Source: Eledone cirrhosa (Eukaryota). From it: a stretch of 64,000 nt of DNA. The first letter of the stretch is position 1; the number at the start of each line of letters is the position of its first letter. Shown here in pieces: positions 3,125 through 51,200 of the stretch. The notes beneath the pieces are model-generated. The model did not search any database. It saw nothing but the letters and a program-made list of their open reading frames with translations, and was not told the origin of the DNA. The position numbers were made by a program, and so were the translations under genes. The stretch is from the NCBI GenBank assembly GCA_964016885.1, contig OZ024750.1, positions 33,790,001-33,854,000 of the forward strand, written 5' to 3'.

Positions 3125-3458
3125 GAGGCACATGGCTTAGTGGTTAGAGCATTGGCCTTGCAATCGAAAGGTTGTGAGTTCAATTCTCAGACTGGGTGAT
3201 GTCTTGTTTCCTCGAGCAAGACACTTTATTTCACATTGCTCCAGTTTACTCAGCTGTAGAAATGAGATGATAGGGACTGGGGTCCCTATCATTTCACTGC
3301 AAAGTGGTTGTGCAGGTGCCATGGCAAAAAAGCACCCAGCACTCACTGTAAATGAGGTTGGTGTTAGGAAGGGCATCCAGCTGTAGAAATCAAGCCAGAA
3401 TCAGCTCCCGTCCCACCCTTGCAAGCAGGGAAAAAGCGGACGTAAAATGAAATGATGA
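3125..3458 (+). mobile_element. SINE family A
   Basis: Full-length inverted homolog of 1297-1643. Confidence 0.88.
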
Positions 3459-3870: not shown

Positions 3871-4002
3871 AACATACATATATATATATATATATAAACA
3901 CACATATATATATATATATATATACATACATATACAAACATATATATATATATATACATACATATAAACATATATATATATATACATATGTATATATATA
4001 TA

Positions 4003-4590
4003 TGGTGGCTGCCAACTCGTTTTCGAGTATGGCCACTACTTTATATCCATGTAGGAGAACCCCTACCGATGCGCTGAACGAGTGTGACCTTTTAGTCCAG
4101 CCAGCGACTTGAAAACTCTGGTACAAAAACTACACTTGTGACAATTATTGACACATAGTGCTGGGCCCATGGTACCATGTGACGAGAGATCTCCAGATAT
4201 AAAGCAATGCCTGTACTGTGAAGCTTTTATAGTGAGCAAAGGCACTGCACAAAGCCAGTCCCACTCTCTTAACCAAGATACTATTTACCAAAAAGAAGAA
4301 CAAGTCAACATCATTGGATACCATCAGGGTTGCAGGTGTTATATCAGAGTTTTCCTTCTCCTAGAATTGCCTTGACAAATGCTAAGGGGTCATCTCTCCC
4401 GGTGATTTTGGATGGCCATTGACTCTTAAGAGCTCCTTTGCCCTTTGACAGGTTTTGTTTTTAGTCCTGCAGGATGTCCAAAGTCACCCTCCTCACCAAG
4501 AAACATTGGTGGGGTTGCCAGTTTAGTCGCCAACGACCCGACCATGGGACAGGTTGTACTGGAATACATGTTACCAGTAGCACCAGAGCG
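4003..4590 (-). mobile_element. RTE-clade LINE derivative (5'UTR-like part + 3' end)
   Basis: CTAGGAGAAGGAAAACTCTG motif, C-terminal C2H2-like [23 protein letters not shown], short tail running into (TA)n. Confidence 0.6.
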
Positions 4591-4651
4591 TGAAATTAAT
4601 AAACATTCGTCGTACTGCCTCTCTGTTTTGTTCCTGTTCAAATTTTTCCAT

Positions 4652-4801
<150 letters not shown>

Positions 4802-5289
4802 CATACATATAAACATATATATATATACACACACACATATATATGAAATGTTAAGATAGGGTTACTTTTACCTAATTGCTTTATTGCATAGTATATATTT
4901 CAATGGCATGGTTATGCAATGGTTATATCATTGACAGTCTCCACCTAACATCATCAAGTGCTCATACAATTATGAGGCTATGTGTGACATAGAACTGTGA
5001 TGACAGAGCTATGACATGACAGAGCTATGACATGTCAGCAGTTATGATGAACCTATGACGTGTGTAAACAATAACATACTGCAGGGGAGGAGGGCTGCCC
5101 TTCAATGATGTGATGAACTTTAAAATTACTATTCATGGTTAATATTACAACTTCTTATTTTATTATCTACTTTTTATAAATATATTTTAGAACTAAGTTA
5201 TATTTTAGTAAAACTATCAGTTTTAAAACATTTTACAAAAATAAGCCAGTTGTCAATAAACATTTACCTAAAACTAAAATAACATTGAT

Positions 5290-6190
5290 TGCTGGTGCCA
5301 TGATAAAATACACCCAGTACACTCTGTAAAATGGTAGTGCTGGTGTCATGATAAAATACACCCAGTACACACTGTAAAGTGGTAGTGCCGGTGCCATGAT
5401 AAAATACACCCAATACACTCTGTAAAGTGGTAGTGCTGGTGCCATGATAAAATACACCCAGTACACTCTGTAAAGTGGTAGTGCTGGTGCCATGATAAAA
5501 TACACCCAATACACTCTGTAAAGTGGTAGTGCTGGTGCCATGATAAAATAACCCAATACACTCTGGGAAGTGGTAGTGCTGGTGCCATGATAAAATACAC
5601 CCAATACACTCTGTAAAGTGGTAGTGCTGGTGCCATGATAAAATACACCCAATACACTCTGTAAAGTGGTAGTGCCGGTGCCATGATAAAATACACCCAA
5701 TACACTCTGTAAAGTGGTAGTGCCGGTGCCATGATAAAATACACCCAATACACTCTGTAAAGTGGTAGTGCTGGTGCCATGATAAAATACACCCAATACA
5801 CTCTGGGAAGTGGTAGTGCTGGTGCCATGATAAAACACACCCAATACACTCTGTGAAGTGGTAGTGCTGGTGCCATTAAATACACCCAGTACACTCTGTA
5901 AAGTGGTAGTGCTGGTGCCATGATAAAATACACCCAATACACTCTGGGAAGTGGTAGTGCTGGTGCCATGATAAAATACACCCAATACACTCTGTAAAGT
6001 GGTAGTGCTGGTGCCATGATAAAATACACCCAATACACTCTGTAAAGTGGTAGTGCCGGTGCCATGATAAAATACACCCAATACACTCTGTAAAGTGGTA
6101 GTGCCGGTGCCATGATAAAATACACCCAATACACTCTGTAAAGTGGTAGTGCTGGTGCCATGATAAAACACACCCAGTTCACTCTGTAAC
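5290..6190 (+). repeat. 48-bp minisatellite (~19 copies), SINE-module derived
   Basis: Unit GTGCTGGTGCCATGATAAAATACACCCAATACACTCTGTAAAGTGGTA; SINE-type tail follows at 6225-6345. Confidence 0.95.
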
Positions 6191-6674
6191 AGGGCAGCGT
6201 TTGTGCCACAAAAAAAAGAAAACTAATGCACCCTGTAAGGTGGTTGGTGTTATGAAAGACATCCAACCATCGAAACCATGCCAGTGTGGAAAGTGGATGT
6301 AAAAACGATGATGCTGATGATGATGATGATGATAGTGATGATGACGGTAACAACAACACTCCAATATCGGGATTAAGTTTTGATTAAATTATATTTCAAC
6401 ACAGCAGGGGCAGCCAGCACTTGCGACCCCATTTGCTCACAATAGTGAAAGATGGGGGAAGGCAGGAGGGCCAGAGGCAATGACAGTGGGAGTTTGGCTC
6501 CACTGTGTTCGGACCTGGTGTACATGTGTGAGTAATTTTACACAGCAGACTAAAATGGTTTGTCACCACTGGTATGATTCAACCAATCTGAGGGGTAGAG
6601 CAATTTGTGTCCTATTGTTATGACCAAAGCATATAGGAACCTAGCTGTTAGTAAACACTGCAGAAGGTGAGGGT

Positions 6675-7076
6675 TAATTTATACATTATCTTCCAACGGT
6701 TCTCAACCTCTCTATGTAAAACAATATATCTTTTCTCAGTTATAAAAACTATCTCTTTCTCTCTATCACCCATCTCTCCCTCTCCACCTTCACTCTCATC
6801 TCCTCCCCTTTTTTCATCCTTTCCACCCCCCCTCCCTAAATAAAATATTTTTTCCTCGTACATATTTTTCCCTTCGTTAATTTTCAAATTCTTTTAATTT
6901 ATACATTATCTTCCAACGGTTTTCAACCTCTCTATGTAAAACAATATATCTTCTCTCAGTTATAAAAACTATCTCTTTCTCTCTATCACCCATCTCTCCC
7001 TCTCCACCTTCACTCTCATCTCCTCCCCTTTTTCATCCTTTCCACCCCCCACCCCTCTCTAAATAAAATATTTTTC
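6675..7076. repeat. Direct duplication of ~180 bp
   Basis: TTAATTTATACATTATCTTCCAACGG...TAAATAAAATATTTTT present twice. Confidence 0.9.
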
Positions 7077-7163
7077 CCAATATCACACATCAATCTAAAA
7101 CCACTTTTCATATGTTGATTTAAAACTGCACTATCCACAAGTGTTTTTTAGCCTTCATATCAT

Positions 7164-7249
7164 GTTCTCCTGTTTTATCTGATGAAAACACAAATATTAT
7201 TGCATGATGATGTTTGTTTTTGAAATGCGCATAATAAAATACATGGAAC
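7164..7249 (+). ncRNA. Type I hammerhead ribozyme motif HH1
   Basis: Stem I TGTTTTAT/ATAAAATA, CTGATGA 7179-7185, long stem II, GAAA 7222-7225, palindromic stem III ATGCGCAT, AUA site at 7233. Confidence 0.8.
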
Positions 7250-7365
7250 TCCTTTAACCATCTTTTGATCTTATATTATGTATACTCCAGTCCTACAAAC
7301 TGTAGAGTGCTTCTTATCCGATATCTGCATTGCTTTATTGTACTACAATAAAACTCACCTCCTAC

Positions 7366-7396
<31 letters not shown>

Positions 7397-7749
7397 ATTG
7401 TTTTTACTTTTGGCACAAGGCCAGCAATTACCCAGTACATTACTGGTACTTTATTTTATCGACCCCGTAAGGATGAAAGGCAAAGTTAACCTCGGCGGGA
7501 TTTGAACTCAGAATGGCAAGGGCCATAACTCTACCCGTCAAAGCATGGCGTCCAACCCTCTACCGATACTGCCAATTCACCGCCCTATATAAATATATAT
7601 AATATTTATAAAAAGCACCAAAGAATCAATACTTTATTGTTTCTTTGGTGCTTTTTATAAATATTATATATCAGCTCTGTGTAAACCCCATTGCATCGAG
7701 CTTAGAACCAGTTTCAACCTAATAATAACAATACTGTAATTATTATTAA

Positions 7750-8878
7750 TCTATATATATAAAACTGTAGTTGTCTGTGTGTCCGTCCTCATTTTTGCAA
7801 AGTCTATACAAATCCACATTTCTACTCCGATTGACTTCAAACTTGCATTTATATATTCATTGCGGTCTAAATTTTTCAATTTTCTGTTGTTAAAGGGGTG
7901 TTAGGTGCCGGTTATCCATCTCTGTCGAGCTCTTATAATATCTGTATGCCTGGCTGTCTGCATTACGACATTCTGACGTATTATGTTCGCTATTTTCCAT
8001 TCATTGCCAGGGAATGTCTTCACGAATCAAAGTATCGTCTTCCTGTTTTCCTTTGGTTGCAACGTTTTTCGAAATATTTACTTCTACGTTTACAGATTGT
8101 TTTTTTAGTTTCAGAAGATCCCGTTAAGGGTGAAAGCAATGATTCTTTGCTTAAACTTTAATCTGTTATTTTAATATATAATATAAGCGAGGCAAGCCAG
8201 CCCAGTTGCACTTCTTGCCAATAAACATTAACCCTTTGTGCGCCATTCATCTAACTGTAGACCAACAAATACCAACTAAACGGAGCATTGACAAGAACGA
8301 TGGCGAATGAATCTTCGAGGTAAGCAGTTTCCTCCCGAGCTGTTAGTTCACACAGGATTCTCTGCTACACCATTTTGTAATAATACCGAACAACGTACTG
8401 CTGGTCACTCCTTCCTCCAAAAGCCGTACGAAGCGGACATGTGCATCGGGCAGATGAATCGGGTGCAAATCTACACCAGGCCTACACGAGAAATTCACAA
8501 GGGACTGCACCGAGAGGGATAGAGAGAAAGAGTAACTTAGTGGAAAGAGTGCGAATGAACTTTTGAGGTAAGTAGCCTACGCCTTACTGCTATGACACTG
8601 GAACCTTCTGCCAACTTAACCTGTGACTTTCTCTTTCACATTTACTCCAATAGGCCAAAACAGAGGAGTATGAAAAGAAGGGACTCAACAATATTTCTAT
8701 GAACAATGCACGTAGACAGCTAAACTGTACTTTCAACTTCTTAATTTTCTCCAAATAAAACAAGTTTCCTGTCAGTATATTTTCGTGAGTTTTTAACAGG
8801 TACTCACAAATAAACGTTTCTCATTGGAGGTGCTATTACCAATGTTCTTACCCGTGCAACGCCGGGATACACTGCTAG
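7750..8878 (+). mobile_element. Non-autonomous Helitron
   Basis: A|TCTATATATATAAAA start, subterminal hairpin CCCG-TGCAACGC-CGGG, CTAG|T end, no TSD. Confidence 0.85.
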
Positions 8879-8949
8879 TATTATATATATATAAAAGTGA
8901 GCTCGAAAGTAACACAGAGGAGACTGAGGTTAGCTGCGCAAGCTCACCG

Positions 8950-9145
8950 ACATTCAGAGTTGACACTACTCAGTGGTCCTGTGGACACACTATAAGAGGG
9001 AGACCGAGGTTGACATACATTGATGCCCTAATGACAGACACAGGTCTCTGGGAGATGCAGGACATGGCAGTGATGATGAGGGATAGAGACCACTGGAAAG
9101 AATTCGTCCATGGATCTCGGGACTTTTACCCACCATAGATAGATG
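8950..9145 (+). mobile_element. RTE-like LINE 3' fragment
   Basis: RGRPRLTYIDALMTDTGL...MRDRDHWKEFV then stop and (ATAG)n tail. Confidence 0.72.
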
Positions 9146-34364: not shown

Positions 34365-34581
34365 CATAAAATTTGCGTTCCTTTTTAATTTCATTAAATT
34401 TTATATTATGGTTGATATCTGAAAGTTCTTTTTGAAGCATTTTCACAGATTCTAAGCCTGAAAGTACATCGTCTTCACACACACCAGGAGATCCAAATGT
34501 CCAGCTGACATTGTGAACAATAAGTTTCACGAGATCTTGTAGTCTCAGCACCAATTTTTCAGACAGAGCAAATACTTCATC
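34365..34581 (-). CDS. ARID5B: ARID5-like exon A (BAH-region), first exon found in window
   Basis: tttttag|GAT...TATG|gtgagt; 217 nt, phase 0-1; DEVFALSEKLVLRLQDLVKLI resembles ARID5B DEVIAVSEKVIVKLEDLVKW (recalled sequence). Confidence 0.9.
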
Positions 34582-47850: not shown

Positions 47851-47902
<52 letters not shown>

Positions 47903-47942
47903 TATTCAAAATGTTAAATGAAAAATATTCGCATAATCAAAA

Positions 47943-48008
47943 TATATACTTTATTATATATATTTCAAAGGTACTGTGCTGTTTTTTTTTTCAGTACGTC
48001 CTCATCAG

Positions 48009-48020
<12 letters not shown>
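47943..48020 (-). ncRNA. Type I hammerhead ribozyme motif HH2
   Basis: CTGATGA 48008-48002, stem II GGAcGTACTG/CAGTACcTTT, GAAA 47966-47963, TATATA-TA, stem I TATATTGT/ATAAAGTA with one mismatch. Confidence 0.7.
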
Positions 48021-48043
<23 letters not shown>

Positions 48044-48170
48044 AAAACCACAGGCCCTCCATCTCAATTCTACTTTTGAAAAGCAGAACTGCGAAACCGG
48101 TAAAGGAACCAAATAAATATATATTTTTTTTAAGAAAGACTCCACTTGCATTTTCGATTTCATCTTTTTT

Positions 48171-48226
<56 letters not shown>

Positions 48227-48243
48227 TTATATATATGTGTGTG

Positions 48244-48296
<53 letters not shown>

Positions 48297-48505
48297 AGAG
48301 AGAAAAAGAAAGAGAGAGAGATAAATGGAAGTTGCATTATCATATATAGATATCGACAGTCGATCGATAAGATCCCATACCTCATTTGGTTAACGAGTGG
48401 GGTGGAGCTCGTCAAATCGGACCGAGGAAACAATGTTTCCATTGGTCTTTCCAACTGCTAATACTACCTGTCGGTCGCAATTTATATATATATATATATA
48501 GATAG

Positions 48506-48689
48506 ATAAATTCCATTATAACGAATACCATAATAACGAATTTTTCAGTGTAACGAATTTATTTTCAATCCCCGAGGTAATAACAAACAAACGCTCGGTC
48601 TGTTTTGGTCGATCTCGCTATAAAGAATTTTTCGTTATAAGAAATTTATTTTTAAGCCCCATGAATTTGGTTATAGCGGAATTTCACTC
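48506..48689. mobile_element. Pogo/Tigger-like MITE remnant
   Basis: AAATTCCATTATAAC vs GTTATAGCGGAATTT inverted ends, repeated ATAACGAA subterminal motifs. Confidence 0.55.
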
Positions 48690-48934
48690 TGTGTGTGTGT
48701 ATGTGTGTGTGCGTGCGGAAGAAAAGATAATTGTGTATAAATGAAAATTTTTTCACAGTAGATAGTATACTAAGGGACAGGGGAAGTTAAAATTAGTAGG
48801 AAATTGCTTTTGTTAGTCAGATAAATGTTTAGAGTAGGATGCAATATTTCTGATACACTATATCTGTCATTATCCCTCCCTGTCCAACAAGACATATGGT
48901 TTTATAAATATAGTTTCCATTTATTTAATATCAT

Positions 48935-49002
<68 letters not shown>

Positions 49003-49192
49003 TTTTGATTACCCTGCTCAAATGATACTATAATTTTTTTTTTATTATCCCATCCTACCCAATCAGATATTAGAAAACTTTTCATGCAATATTTTCAGAA
49101 ATGTTCACATCCTGTAACTATATTTATTTTAAGAACATTGATTCATTTAAATAGAACAAAAACATATCAAACTCCAATTATTTTTATCTTCA

Positions 49193-49229
<37 letters not shown>

Positions 49230-49239
49230 TTTATCTTCA

Positions 49240-49280
<41 letters not shown>

Positions 49281-49306
49281 CAGAGGGGGAGAGGAAAGGT
49301 AAAACC

Positions 49307-49372
<66 letters not shown>

Positions 49373-49391
49373 ATATTAATAAATGGAAACT

Positions 49392-49497
49392 ATATTTATA
49401 AAACCATAATTATTTTATTATATATATTTCAAGGGCTACCAAGGCAGTCTTGGTGCGCTTTCATCAGATAAAATACAAGATTTGTTTTATAAATATT
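49392..49497 (-). ncRNA. Type I hammerhead ribozyme motif HH3
   Basis: Stem I TATTTTAT/ATAAAATA plus extension ATATTTATAAAAC/GTTTTATAAATAT, CTGATGA 49467-49461, stem II AAGcGCACCAAG/CTTGGTaGCcCTT, GAAA, AUA site at 49419. Confidence 0.82.
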
Positions 49498-49751
49498 GAC
49501 ATAACCGCGGAATCCCAACAAATTAAATATAACTTCTGCATATATATATATATATATACACACAGATTTAGTACAGCTGCCTTGAAACATGTAAGGAAAT
49601 AAATATGATTTAAAAGTGATATATACAGTAGTGTTTTGAAGGGTTATACACCCCCAATTCATTCAGCCTGTTATATAAAAAGAAAAATCTTAAAATACTT
49701 AACTCGTCCTATGGACTGAGTGGCCTTACTTGGATATTTCTACCAAACTTA

Positions 49752-49811
<60 letters not shown>

Positions 49812-50507
49812 CTACACACACACTAAAGGCTGACTAAAGGAGTAACAGCTGATTGAGATATTGTAGTTTTATAGTTGCGGTAGTCAATTAGTTGATAGCT
49901 AGCTTGCTGAGAGGAAGTAGAGTTGGAGCAAGTTTAAAGCAAATAGTTGTGTGCAAGGGTGGAGGTGGCAGGTGGTGTGGGTGAACGTGGTTAAGGCAGG
50001 GTGTAGGGGAGGGTTGGTAAATAGAACTGGATGGCAAAATTGTTCAAACTTAATTGACTGATCTGATTTCAGTAATATTATCACCCTAAGTAAATGGATC
50101 TAGCTGCATGTTTTCAGCAGACAAATAAAATACTGACGAGAAATTATATTAAATATTCATCCCAAAGTCAGTGTGTGTTTGTGTGTGTGTGGCAATTAAT
50201 GTGTGTGTGTTTGTGTGTTACCAATTAATGAGTATGTGTGTTGTCAATTAATGAGTATGTGTGTTGTCAATTAATGAGTATGTGTGTTGTCAATTAATGT
50301 GTATTGTGTGTCAATGTGTTATGTGTGTTGTGTCAAATGATATATATGTGTGTGTGTGGATTAATGTCAATTAATATATACATATATGTATGCGTCAATC
50401 AATGAATGTGTCTGTGGGCGTCAATGTGTGTGTGTGCGCATGATTACTGGTGGTTATTGCAGAAAACTTGTTTTTTTTACTACATCCAATATATCTAAAT
50501 AAAACAA

Positions 50508-50568
<61 letters not shown>

Positions 50569-50868
50569 AATAATGAATCAAAACATCAAATACGTTTAGA
50601 AGTTTATGTTTCTCAATAAGTAAGCTCAATAGACATCTAGAGTCATGAGCAAATGAAAAAGATATATGTATATATATAGAGAGAGAGAGAAAGAGCCATA
50701 TATATCGTATAGGAAACAGTATATTGTATATATATATACTAAATACATATTCTATAGAAGAATATGTACACAGGTGGAATCATAGTGTTCATATTCTTCT
50801 ATAGAATATGTATTTGGTATATATACAATATACTATGTCTCTTATACGATATGTATGGCTCTTTCTCA

Positions 50869-50915
<47 letters not shown>

Positions 50916-51065
50916 AGAGATATTTAATTTGTTGGAAATCCAACAAATATAGATGTTTATAACTGATTCAGAGCACTCGACAAATATCTGGAGTAAGTAT
51001 TCAATATTATCCACTTTCCAGGGATAACTTGAACCGATAAGGTATATTATCCTTGGTCATGTCAA

Positions 51066-51168
51066 ATATTTATAAAACATTTTGTATTTTATCTGATGAT
51101 AGCGTACCAAAATTTTTGGTACCCTTGAAATATATATATAATAGAATACATATGGTTTTATAAATATA
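51066..51168 (+). ncRNA. Type I hammerhead ribozyme motif HH4
   Basis: Stem I TGTATTTTAT/ATAGAATACA plus 13-bp extension, CTGATGA 51093-51099, stem II GTACCAAAA/TTTTGGTAC, GAAA 51127-51130, AUA site at 51140; U.U at stem II base. Confidence 0.78.
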
Positions 51169-51200
51169 GTTTCCATTTATTTAATATCATTGTGTGTATA

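Follow-up and report, generated by a model that had tools for sequence, protein, structure and literature searches.

Hammerhead-bearing 3′ ends of Penelope-like elements in a predicted ARID5 intron of Eledone cirrhosa

The closest described relatives of three hammerhead motifs in a 64,000-nucleotide stretch of the Eledone cirrhosa genome that carries part of the gene ARID5 (GenBank assembly GCA_964016885.1, contig OZ024750.1, positions 33,790,001 to 33,854,000; hereafter the window) are the ribozymes of Penelope-like elements (PLEs). The minimal hammerheads of PLEs have type I order, a long helix II, a small palindromic helix III and many covarying families; most are single copies from truncated elements, opposite-strand pairs lie 100-700 bp apart, they number ~4,000 in coelacanth and ~9,000 in Xenopus, and metazoan ones are inactive as single motifs and weakly active as dimers (PMC4209133). 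Elements of the Hydra clade carry a C-terminal GIY-YIG domain, a motif list of DKT, RWK, CxCx5C, CxxC and CxH with no CCHH, (TA)n targets and a hammerhead near the 3′ end, with a length of <3 kb published as typical, not defining (PMC8557442); Hydra-1_Obim of Octopus bimaculoides (2507 bp, in (TA)n) has a ribozyme different from those described here (PMC8557442 supplement). The ribozyme of PAc, a Poseidon element of Anolis, cleaves only with the element's protein, is dispensable for insertion and leaves no RNA reads ending at the cut site (PMC11167929). Non-LTR (long terminal repeat) retrozymes are organised as tandem non-coding repeats of 150-450 bp, from which circles arise (PMC7229834; bioRxiv 10.64898/2026.07.22.740005), and hammerhead counts reach >6,000 in one coral, ~5,000 in one mussel and 126,247 in axolotl (PMC7229834). 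Domesticated intronic hammerheads occur in RECK and other amniote genes (PMC6155905), and the role of PLE hammerheads is described as an open question (PMC8557442).

The Eledone motifs, which we designate HH2, HH3 and HH4, are very probably the hammerhead-bearing 3′ ends of three PLE subfamilies, likely of the Hydra clade, that probably inserted independently into microsatellites and now lie, likely as inert passengers, in a predicted ARID5 intron. They share all of the above structural and distributional features of the minimal PLE hammerheads but have no G10.1-C11.1 pair, a longer stem I (8-10 bp) and a far larger number of copies (76,307 core-intact motifs against ~4,000-9,000). With the Hydra clade their parent elements have in common the C-terminal GIY-YIG, the DKT, CxCx5C, CxxC and CxH motifs, the lack of CCHH, the (TA)n targets and the position of the hammerhead; the ctgatgaT...Tgaa of many Hydra ribozymes recurs in HH4, and U opposite U or G at 10.1-11.1 is common in the Hydra ribozyme table too. 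They depart from that clade in unit length (~4.1-4.2 kb, taken from a sister subfamily, against <3 kb), tail length (~95 nt against 30-40), RWR or RWC in place of RWK, and tens of thousands of copies, and their ribozymes differ from that of Hydra-1_Obim in a longer stem II with a C.C mismatch, an 8-nt palindromic stem III and an AUA triplet. As in PAc, the 3′ end is fixed at two points (main end and tail), both beyond the ribozyme, and insertions read through the cut site; PAc, however, belongs to a different clade and its open reading frame (ORF) starts inside the ribozyme, not ~240-260 nt 3′ of it. Type I order, a weak palindromic stem III and high copy number are shared with retrozymes, but the copies here derive from the ends of coding elements, are truncated to varying extents and lie scattered in the genome without a tandem 150-450 bp repeat structure, and the retrozyme reading raised in the preliminary description is therefore rejected.

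Motifs and insertions at the ARID5 locus

Each motif presents the type I order of CUGANGA, GAAA and an NUH triplet with stems I to III formable, and the AUA triplets set the predicted cut sites (after 47955, 49419 and 51140).

48008 to 47963, minus strand: HH2 core, predicted cut 47955/47954
49467 to 49427, minus strand: HH3 core, predicted cut 49419/49418
51093 to 51130, plus strand: HH4 core, predicted cut 51140/51141

The interval between the two minus-strand cut sites is 1464 nt. Stem III is AUAUAUAU, an identical 8-nt palindrome, in HH2 and HH3, and AUAUAUAUAU in HH4, which has one TA more than the norm of its subfamily. In all three the stem II arms pair, the fourth pair being a C.C mismatch, and the closing pair of stem II is A-U, G.U or U.U, not G-C. 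HH3 combines an intact core with an 8-bp stem I and a 13-bp distal helix; stem I of HH2 consists of 4 bp and a mismatch, with the remainder borrowed from the host TA repeat. The positions, the two minus-strand cut sites and their spacing, and the shared CUGAUGA, GAAA, AUA, palindromic stem III and mismatched stem II were thus correctly given in the preliminary description, which had also proposed a hammerhead scan with covariation analysis. The Rfam scan returned no hammerhead family at gathering score and none up to E=10. A family-pattern scan of the genome and stem II covariation, both described below, were positive. Bare CTGATGA..GAAA matches at the three sites number 4 against 0.96 expected, with at least 4 in 2 of 100 shuffles; the genome-wide motif count is the stronger argument that a chance origin is unlikely, and we reject it.

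Alignment with related copies resolves the locus into the following insertions.

47902 to 48012, minus strand (~111 nt): HH2, a 5′-truncated PLE 3′ end of subfamily GGACGTACTG
48894 to 48936, plus strand: short PLE 3′-end remnant of the HH3/HH4 group, beginning ~10 nt 3′ of the cut site and without ribozyme, followed by (TA)n
49369 to 49512, minus strand (144 nt): HH3, direct part of a 5′-truncated PLE of subfamily AAGCGCACCAAG, followed by (TA)29
49509 to 49555, plus strand (47 nt): HH3 inverted tail-extension end on the 5′ side of the insertion, 100% identical over 45 nt to the inverted-copy tail in locus L041, with (TA)n flanks
50911 to 51005, minus strand: HH4 inverted tail extension (~95 nt), 98% identical to locus L031 and 96% to L028, with (TG)n flanks
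51012 to 51192, plus strand (181 nt): HH4, direct part of a 5′-truncated PLE of subfamily TAGCGTACC, antisense to ARID5

HH2 family sequence ends ~4-10 nt 5′ of C3 and gives way to (TA)n, with an AT-rich microsatellite on the opposite side. Searches with each motif plus its flanks gave 1,227 (HH4), 1,969 (HH3) and 1,107 (HH2) first-look candidates, 40 of which were scored per motif; the best matches are 93-99% identical and often form inverted pairs 100-300 nt apart. Copies have a common 3′ end ~50-60 nt beyond the cut site, a second end ~95 nt further on (the tail) and variable 5′ ends. Downstream of 173 motifs in centred loci, some of them overlapping, lie a TA/TG repeat in 68 cases, the tail in 37 and other sequence in 12, the remaining 56 ends being unrecognised by the regular expression. 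Direct and inverted pseudo-LTRs (pLTRs), 5′ truncation and tail extension, all hallmarks of PLEs, are present, and each motif is the 3′ end (pLTR) of a PLE from a different dispersed subfamily. HH3 and HH2, called tandem in the preliminary description, are therefore merely close to one another, and they are not the two pLTRs of one element, since they come from different subfamilies and no ORF lies between them.

The insertions read through the ribozyme cut site, and 5′ ends are not piled up there (22 unambiguous cases against 37 at a control junction). After the model of PAc, the element protein would have nicked a TA repeat and reverse transcription would have begun at one of two internal sites, ~50-60 and 150 nt 3′ of the cut site, on a template RNA that was presumably not cut at the ribozyme; synthesis would have ended after 110-180 nt, with a 5′ inversion in HH3 and HH4. 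Many 5′ truncations and inversions coincide, next to a hairpin (CCAGGGATAA/TTATCCTTGG) and a run of pyrimidines that ends in CAG (locus L025 at ~1400-1500 and window 51012-51055); reverse transcriptase (RT) could pause at this shared truncation point, or an intron within the pLTR could have its 3′ splice site there.

By homology, ARID5 lies on the minus strand, so that HH2 and HH3 are in sense orientation, as first described, and HH4 is antisense. ARID5B of Octopus vulgaris aligns with exons on the minus strand between 34581 and the start of the window, with 94% identity across exon 34384-34581, and the host intron is bounded by two coding exons.

34366 to 34581, minus strand: ARID5 coding exon (homolog residues 93-164), closing the host intron on its 3′ side
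Contig positions 33886448-33886705: upstream ARID5 coding exon (residues 7-92), ~32 kb past the window end

Because these exons enclose all three motifs, HH2, HH3 and HH4 are placed inside a predicted ARID5 intron of ~62 kb. No RT or endonuclease ORF remnant was detected by tblastn across 104 kb of the locus, in agreement with the earlier statement that no Penelope ORF lies nearby. The same 104 kb hold five motifs in total (3 sense, 2 antisense): a further hammerhead PLE end lies antisense in a downstream ARID5 intron (window 7110-7366, plus strand, core at 7179) and belongs to a subfamily with a GC-rich palindromic stem III (ATGCGCAT) that is frequent among the first 100 genome matches, and a sense motif with a disturbed stem III and cut region lies ~23 kb past the window end in the same large intron (L146:3000-3193, minus strand). 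Beside the HH4 insertion, at 50687-50868, a near-perfect inverted repeat with arms of ~90 nt stands between microsatellites and has only sub-threshold microRNA matches. Repeat finding returned microsatellites only; the tRNA-like head of an abundant repeat of the short interspersed element type occurs at 3131-3194 and many like places (Rfam tRNA, 29.9 bits, with dozens of related matches in the locus).

Parent elements and genome-wide load

All three subfamilies have longer copies adjoining RT and/or GIY-YIG coding sequence, which substantiates the Penelope lead of the preliminary description. In L031, broken RT and GIY-YIG frames are bounded on both sides by an HH4-type pLTR, which is inverted on the 5′ side; in L178, GIY-YIG endonuclease coding sequence is followed, 1.6 kb downstream, by an HH3-type ribozyme; and in L179, an HH2-type ribozyme lies ~260 nt upstream of a PLE ORF (residues 1-703, 50-62% identity). 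A search with the RT piece gave 40,013 first-look candidates, of which 150 were scored. Direct pLTRs 4.1-4.2 kb apart were found in 3 of 20 long loci, all of a sister subfamily, with ribozyme-to-ribozyme units of 4166 (L129), 4091 (L132) and 4240 nt (L139). Pfam matched GIY-YIG at E=0.0014, below its cut-off, and did not match the RT piece; full-length unnamed homologs show 31-37% identity.

Clade motifs were read on HH4-type and sister-subfamily ORFs, three of which were aligned. DKT, the CxCx5C linker, CxxC and CxH are present and CCHH is missing in L031, L123, L125 and L126; the linker is of the type CNCRIKVNC and is partly deleted in L123. The RWK position reads RWR in L123 and RWC in L126 (aligned homologs have RWK in 6 of 7 and RWR in 1 of 7). 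Together with the (TA)n insertion preference, these motifs make it likely that the parent elements belong to the Hydra clade. The non-coding stretch of 1-2 kb between endonuclease end and ribozyme (L031:4145-5483, L129, L132 and L139) is unusually long for that clade. Among 20 long copies looked at, the longest open frame has 743 residues and an altered RT catalytic motif, YRDY (L123:1382-3610), suggesting that most element copies are dead.

A looser family pattern finds 76,307 core-intact motifs in the 3.0-Gb assembly (38,317 plus, 37,990 minus), or one per 39 kb, and none in the reversed control; a strict pattern finds 6,485. Since the looser pattern ignores pairing, counts both members of inverted pairs and misses HH2 and HH4 themselves, its total is a floor for motifs and not an insertion count. 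By eye, all of the first 100 listed matches look like family members. From 87 centred best-hit loci, 83 had a match to the regular expression, and in 10 of these 83 an additional, separate motif lies no more than 1.5 kb away (on the same strand in 7 of 83; one may be a partial tandem). Four neighbour pairs were seen by eye among the first 100 listed motifs. With a same-strand neighbour within 1.5 kb at 7 of 83 loci, the HH3-HH2 pair is commonplace. The excess of insertions over uniform scatter requires a target preference to be invoked, and shared (TA)n targets are the likely cause of copy clustering.

Hammerheads in PLEs have been published before, as has a Hydra element from Octopus. Literature searches for an octopus hammerhead census found only Craig et al. 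(PMC8557442), and neither "hammerhead" nor "ribozyme" occurs in the main text of the O. vulgaris repeat paper. These searches found no report of this copy number or of the C.C mismatch in stem II, and no internal C.C mismatch was seen among the ribozymes compared from the Hydra table (PMC8557442 supplement); supplementary material to Craig et al. and to the bioRxiv preprint could list such families.

Ribozyme anatomy and selection on copies

Anatomy was tabulated over 199 motifs, duplicates included, that matched a regular expression allowing only alternating purine/pyrimidine stem III. The core-adjacent stem II pair is A-U in 78, U.U in 62, G.U in 51 and G-C in 3, so that the G10.1-C11.1 pair with an unpaired base between 9 and 10.1, typical of minimal PLE hammerheads, is rare here, whereas their palindromic stem III and long covarying helix II are both present. 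The fourth pair is C.C in 171 motifs and another pyrimidine mismatch in 20, and N17 is A in 197. Between subfamilies, stem II pairs covary at 10.3 (G-C/A-U), 10.5 (G-C/A-U) and 10.6 (U-A/C-G), and stem III is self-complementary in all of its forms (ATATATAT, ATATGTAT or ATGCGCAT). These features speak for selection, within the lineages of the elements, for a ribozyme of the dimer type. In the parent element it may work either in dimers that its two pLTRs form by way of their palindromic stem III or with the help of the element protein.

After insertion, cores decay. In HH4-subfamily copies chosen by their flanks only, the ten core positions are kept in 581 of 694 and ten flank positions in 546 of 694, and 113 copies fail the core pattern. 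The preliminary description had held that neutral decay of the core would count against a functional ribozyme; decay is indeed seen, slightly slower than in the flank. Such a pattern is compatible with drift combined with selection acting on source elements, or with an effect of base composition, and is not clean neutrality.

Predicted cleavage of ARID5 RNA

Several observations weigh against the reading of the motifs as inert, independently inserted ends of Hydra-clade PLEs. (i) The units of 4.1-4.2 kb exceed the typical length of the Hydra clade, and the likely placement in that clade comes from motifs, not from a tree. (ii) Under uniform scatter, two more motifs within 3.25 kb have P of ~0.003. 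(iii) A further 120 junctions form an ambiguous class in which starts at the cut site are not separated from microhomology or expansion of stem III; all three junction counts are tiny beside the 76,307 motifs. (iv) In the one subfamily compared, loss per site is 1.8% in the core and 2.4% in the flank control (Fisher p=0.019). (v) With 30 nt past the cut made during transcription, the local fold of HH3 is only 4.7 kcal/mol above the ensemble, and HH3 could cleave slowly. (vi) The energies omit tertiary contacts and proteins and are positive even for homodimers, for which reason only their ranking counts.

Within that ranking, HH2 in ARID5 pre-mRNA is predicted to misfold: alone it costs 12-18 kcal/mol, against 6-7 for a 5′-extended family copy. 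In a double hammerhead the partners exchange not only stem III but also the strands of stem I. The 5′ strand of HH3 pairs over 10 bp with the 3′ strand of HH2, whereas the 5′ strand of HH2, having lost its own stem I portion, makes 4 pairs with the 3′ strand of HH3 and then a mismatch. In the real 1,626-nt context the fold cost is +16.8 kcal/mol for the double hammerhead, +7.9 for a single hybrid core cutting at 47955 and +7.1 for HH3 alone. With a short linker, the HH3+HH2 dimer costs 21.4 and 26.0 kcal/mol (45 and 80 nt downstream), and five homodimers 2.0-12.7 and 4.7-17.7. In ARID5 pre-mRNA, HH2 would be misfolded, HH3 would have no matching partner and HH4 would be antisense. Cleavage of ARID5 RNA by any route appears improbable.

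The rival with most to recommend it, to which we nevertheless give only a slim chance, is that HH3 alone, or a hybrid of an HH3 catalytic strand and an HH2 substrate, cuts a fraction of ARID5 pre-mRNA co-transcriptionally, perhaps only with PLE protein, and that splicing tolerates this or output falls slightly. The intact HH3 core with its stem I and distal helix, its modest co-transcriptional cost, the cross-register stem I of the hybrid and the cleavage of the PAc ribozyme upon protein addition (PMC11167929) speak for it; against it stand a monomer stem III of two A-U pairs, the reported inactivity of single PLE motifs and low activity of dimers (PMC4209133), and predicted frequencies of 1e-5 to 1e-6 for both folds in the full context. 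In favour of the preliminary description are the cross-pairing of stem I and a hybrid core predicted to be no worse than HH3 alone, both of them rare folds. Against this rival, too, sense copies are not depleted across 10 gene spans (657 kb), with 9 sense and 6 antisense motifs, or 6 and 4 without ARID5, in a sample of low power (15 motifs, three inverted pairs counted on both strands, spans drawn from same-strand domain exons only).

Seven of the nine non-ARID5 spans (~410 kb) contain no motif where ~10 would be expected at the genome average, and one span has six, a distribution that points either to marked differences between regions or to partial exclusion from genes. In Xenopus, retrozymes are reported to be under-represented in introns, a result given without a strand test (bioRxiv 10.64898/2026.07.22.740005).

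A broader version, that PLE protein or pairing between neighbours of different subfamilies lets hammerheads cut host pre-mRNAs such as that of ARID5, a transposon-gated intron cleavage in a cephalopod, seems to us more doubtful still. The double cut suggested in the preliminary description, by which HH3 and HH2 would free a 1464-nt RNA that may circularise, is very unlikely: the two share a strand, the identical palindromic stem III and intact cores, but the second core needs the lost 5′ strand of HH2, the double fold is the costliest of the three in context, and the partners come from different subfamilies in an arrangement common in the genome. That the cluster is domesticated and under host selection, like the conserved intronic hammerheads of amniotes, can be all but dismissed despite its intronic position in a transcription-factor gene and the RECK precedent (PMC6155905), because all three match dispersed copies at 94-99% identity, over the core as much as the flank, and so are young, with no sign of conservation particular to this locus.

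On the preferred reading, of three PLE 3′ ends as passengers, the cluster itself is ordinary; the genome-wide load is the useful result. That load was missed by Rfam and is of the same order as the 126,247 hammerheads of axolotl, far above the 4,000-9,000 of coelacanth and Xenopus. The C.C mismatch, kept amid covarying neighbours, may mark a protein or tertiary contact. Given an annotation, the copy number and subfamilies would make two further questions testable by computation, a possible purging of sense intronic copies and a possible failure of broken-core sources to spread. If transposon-gated cleavage were true, its basis would be one core-intact hammerhead per 39 kb, many of them lying in introns in sense orientation, and most with a palindromic stem III that is compatible across the motifs.

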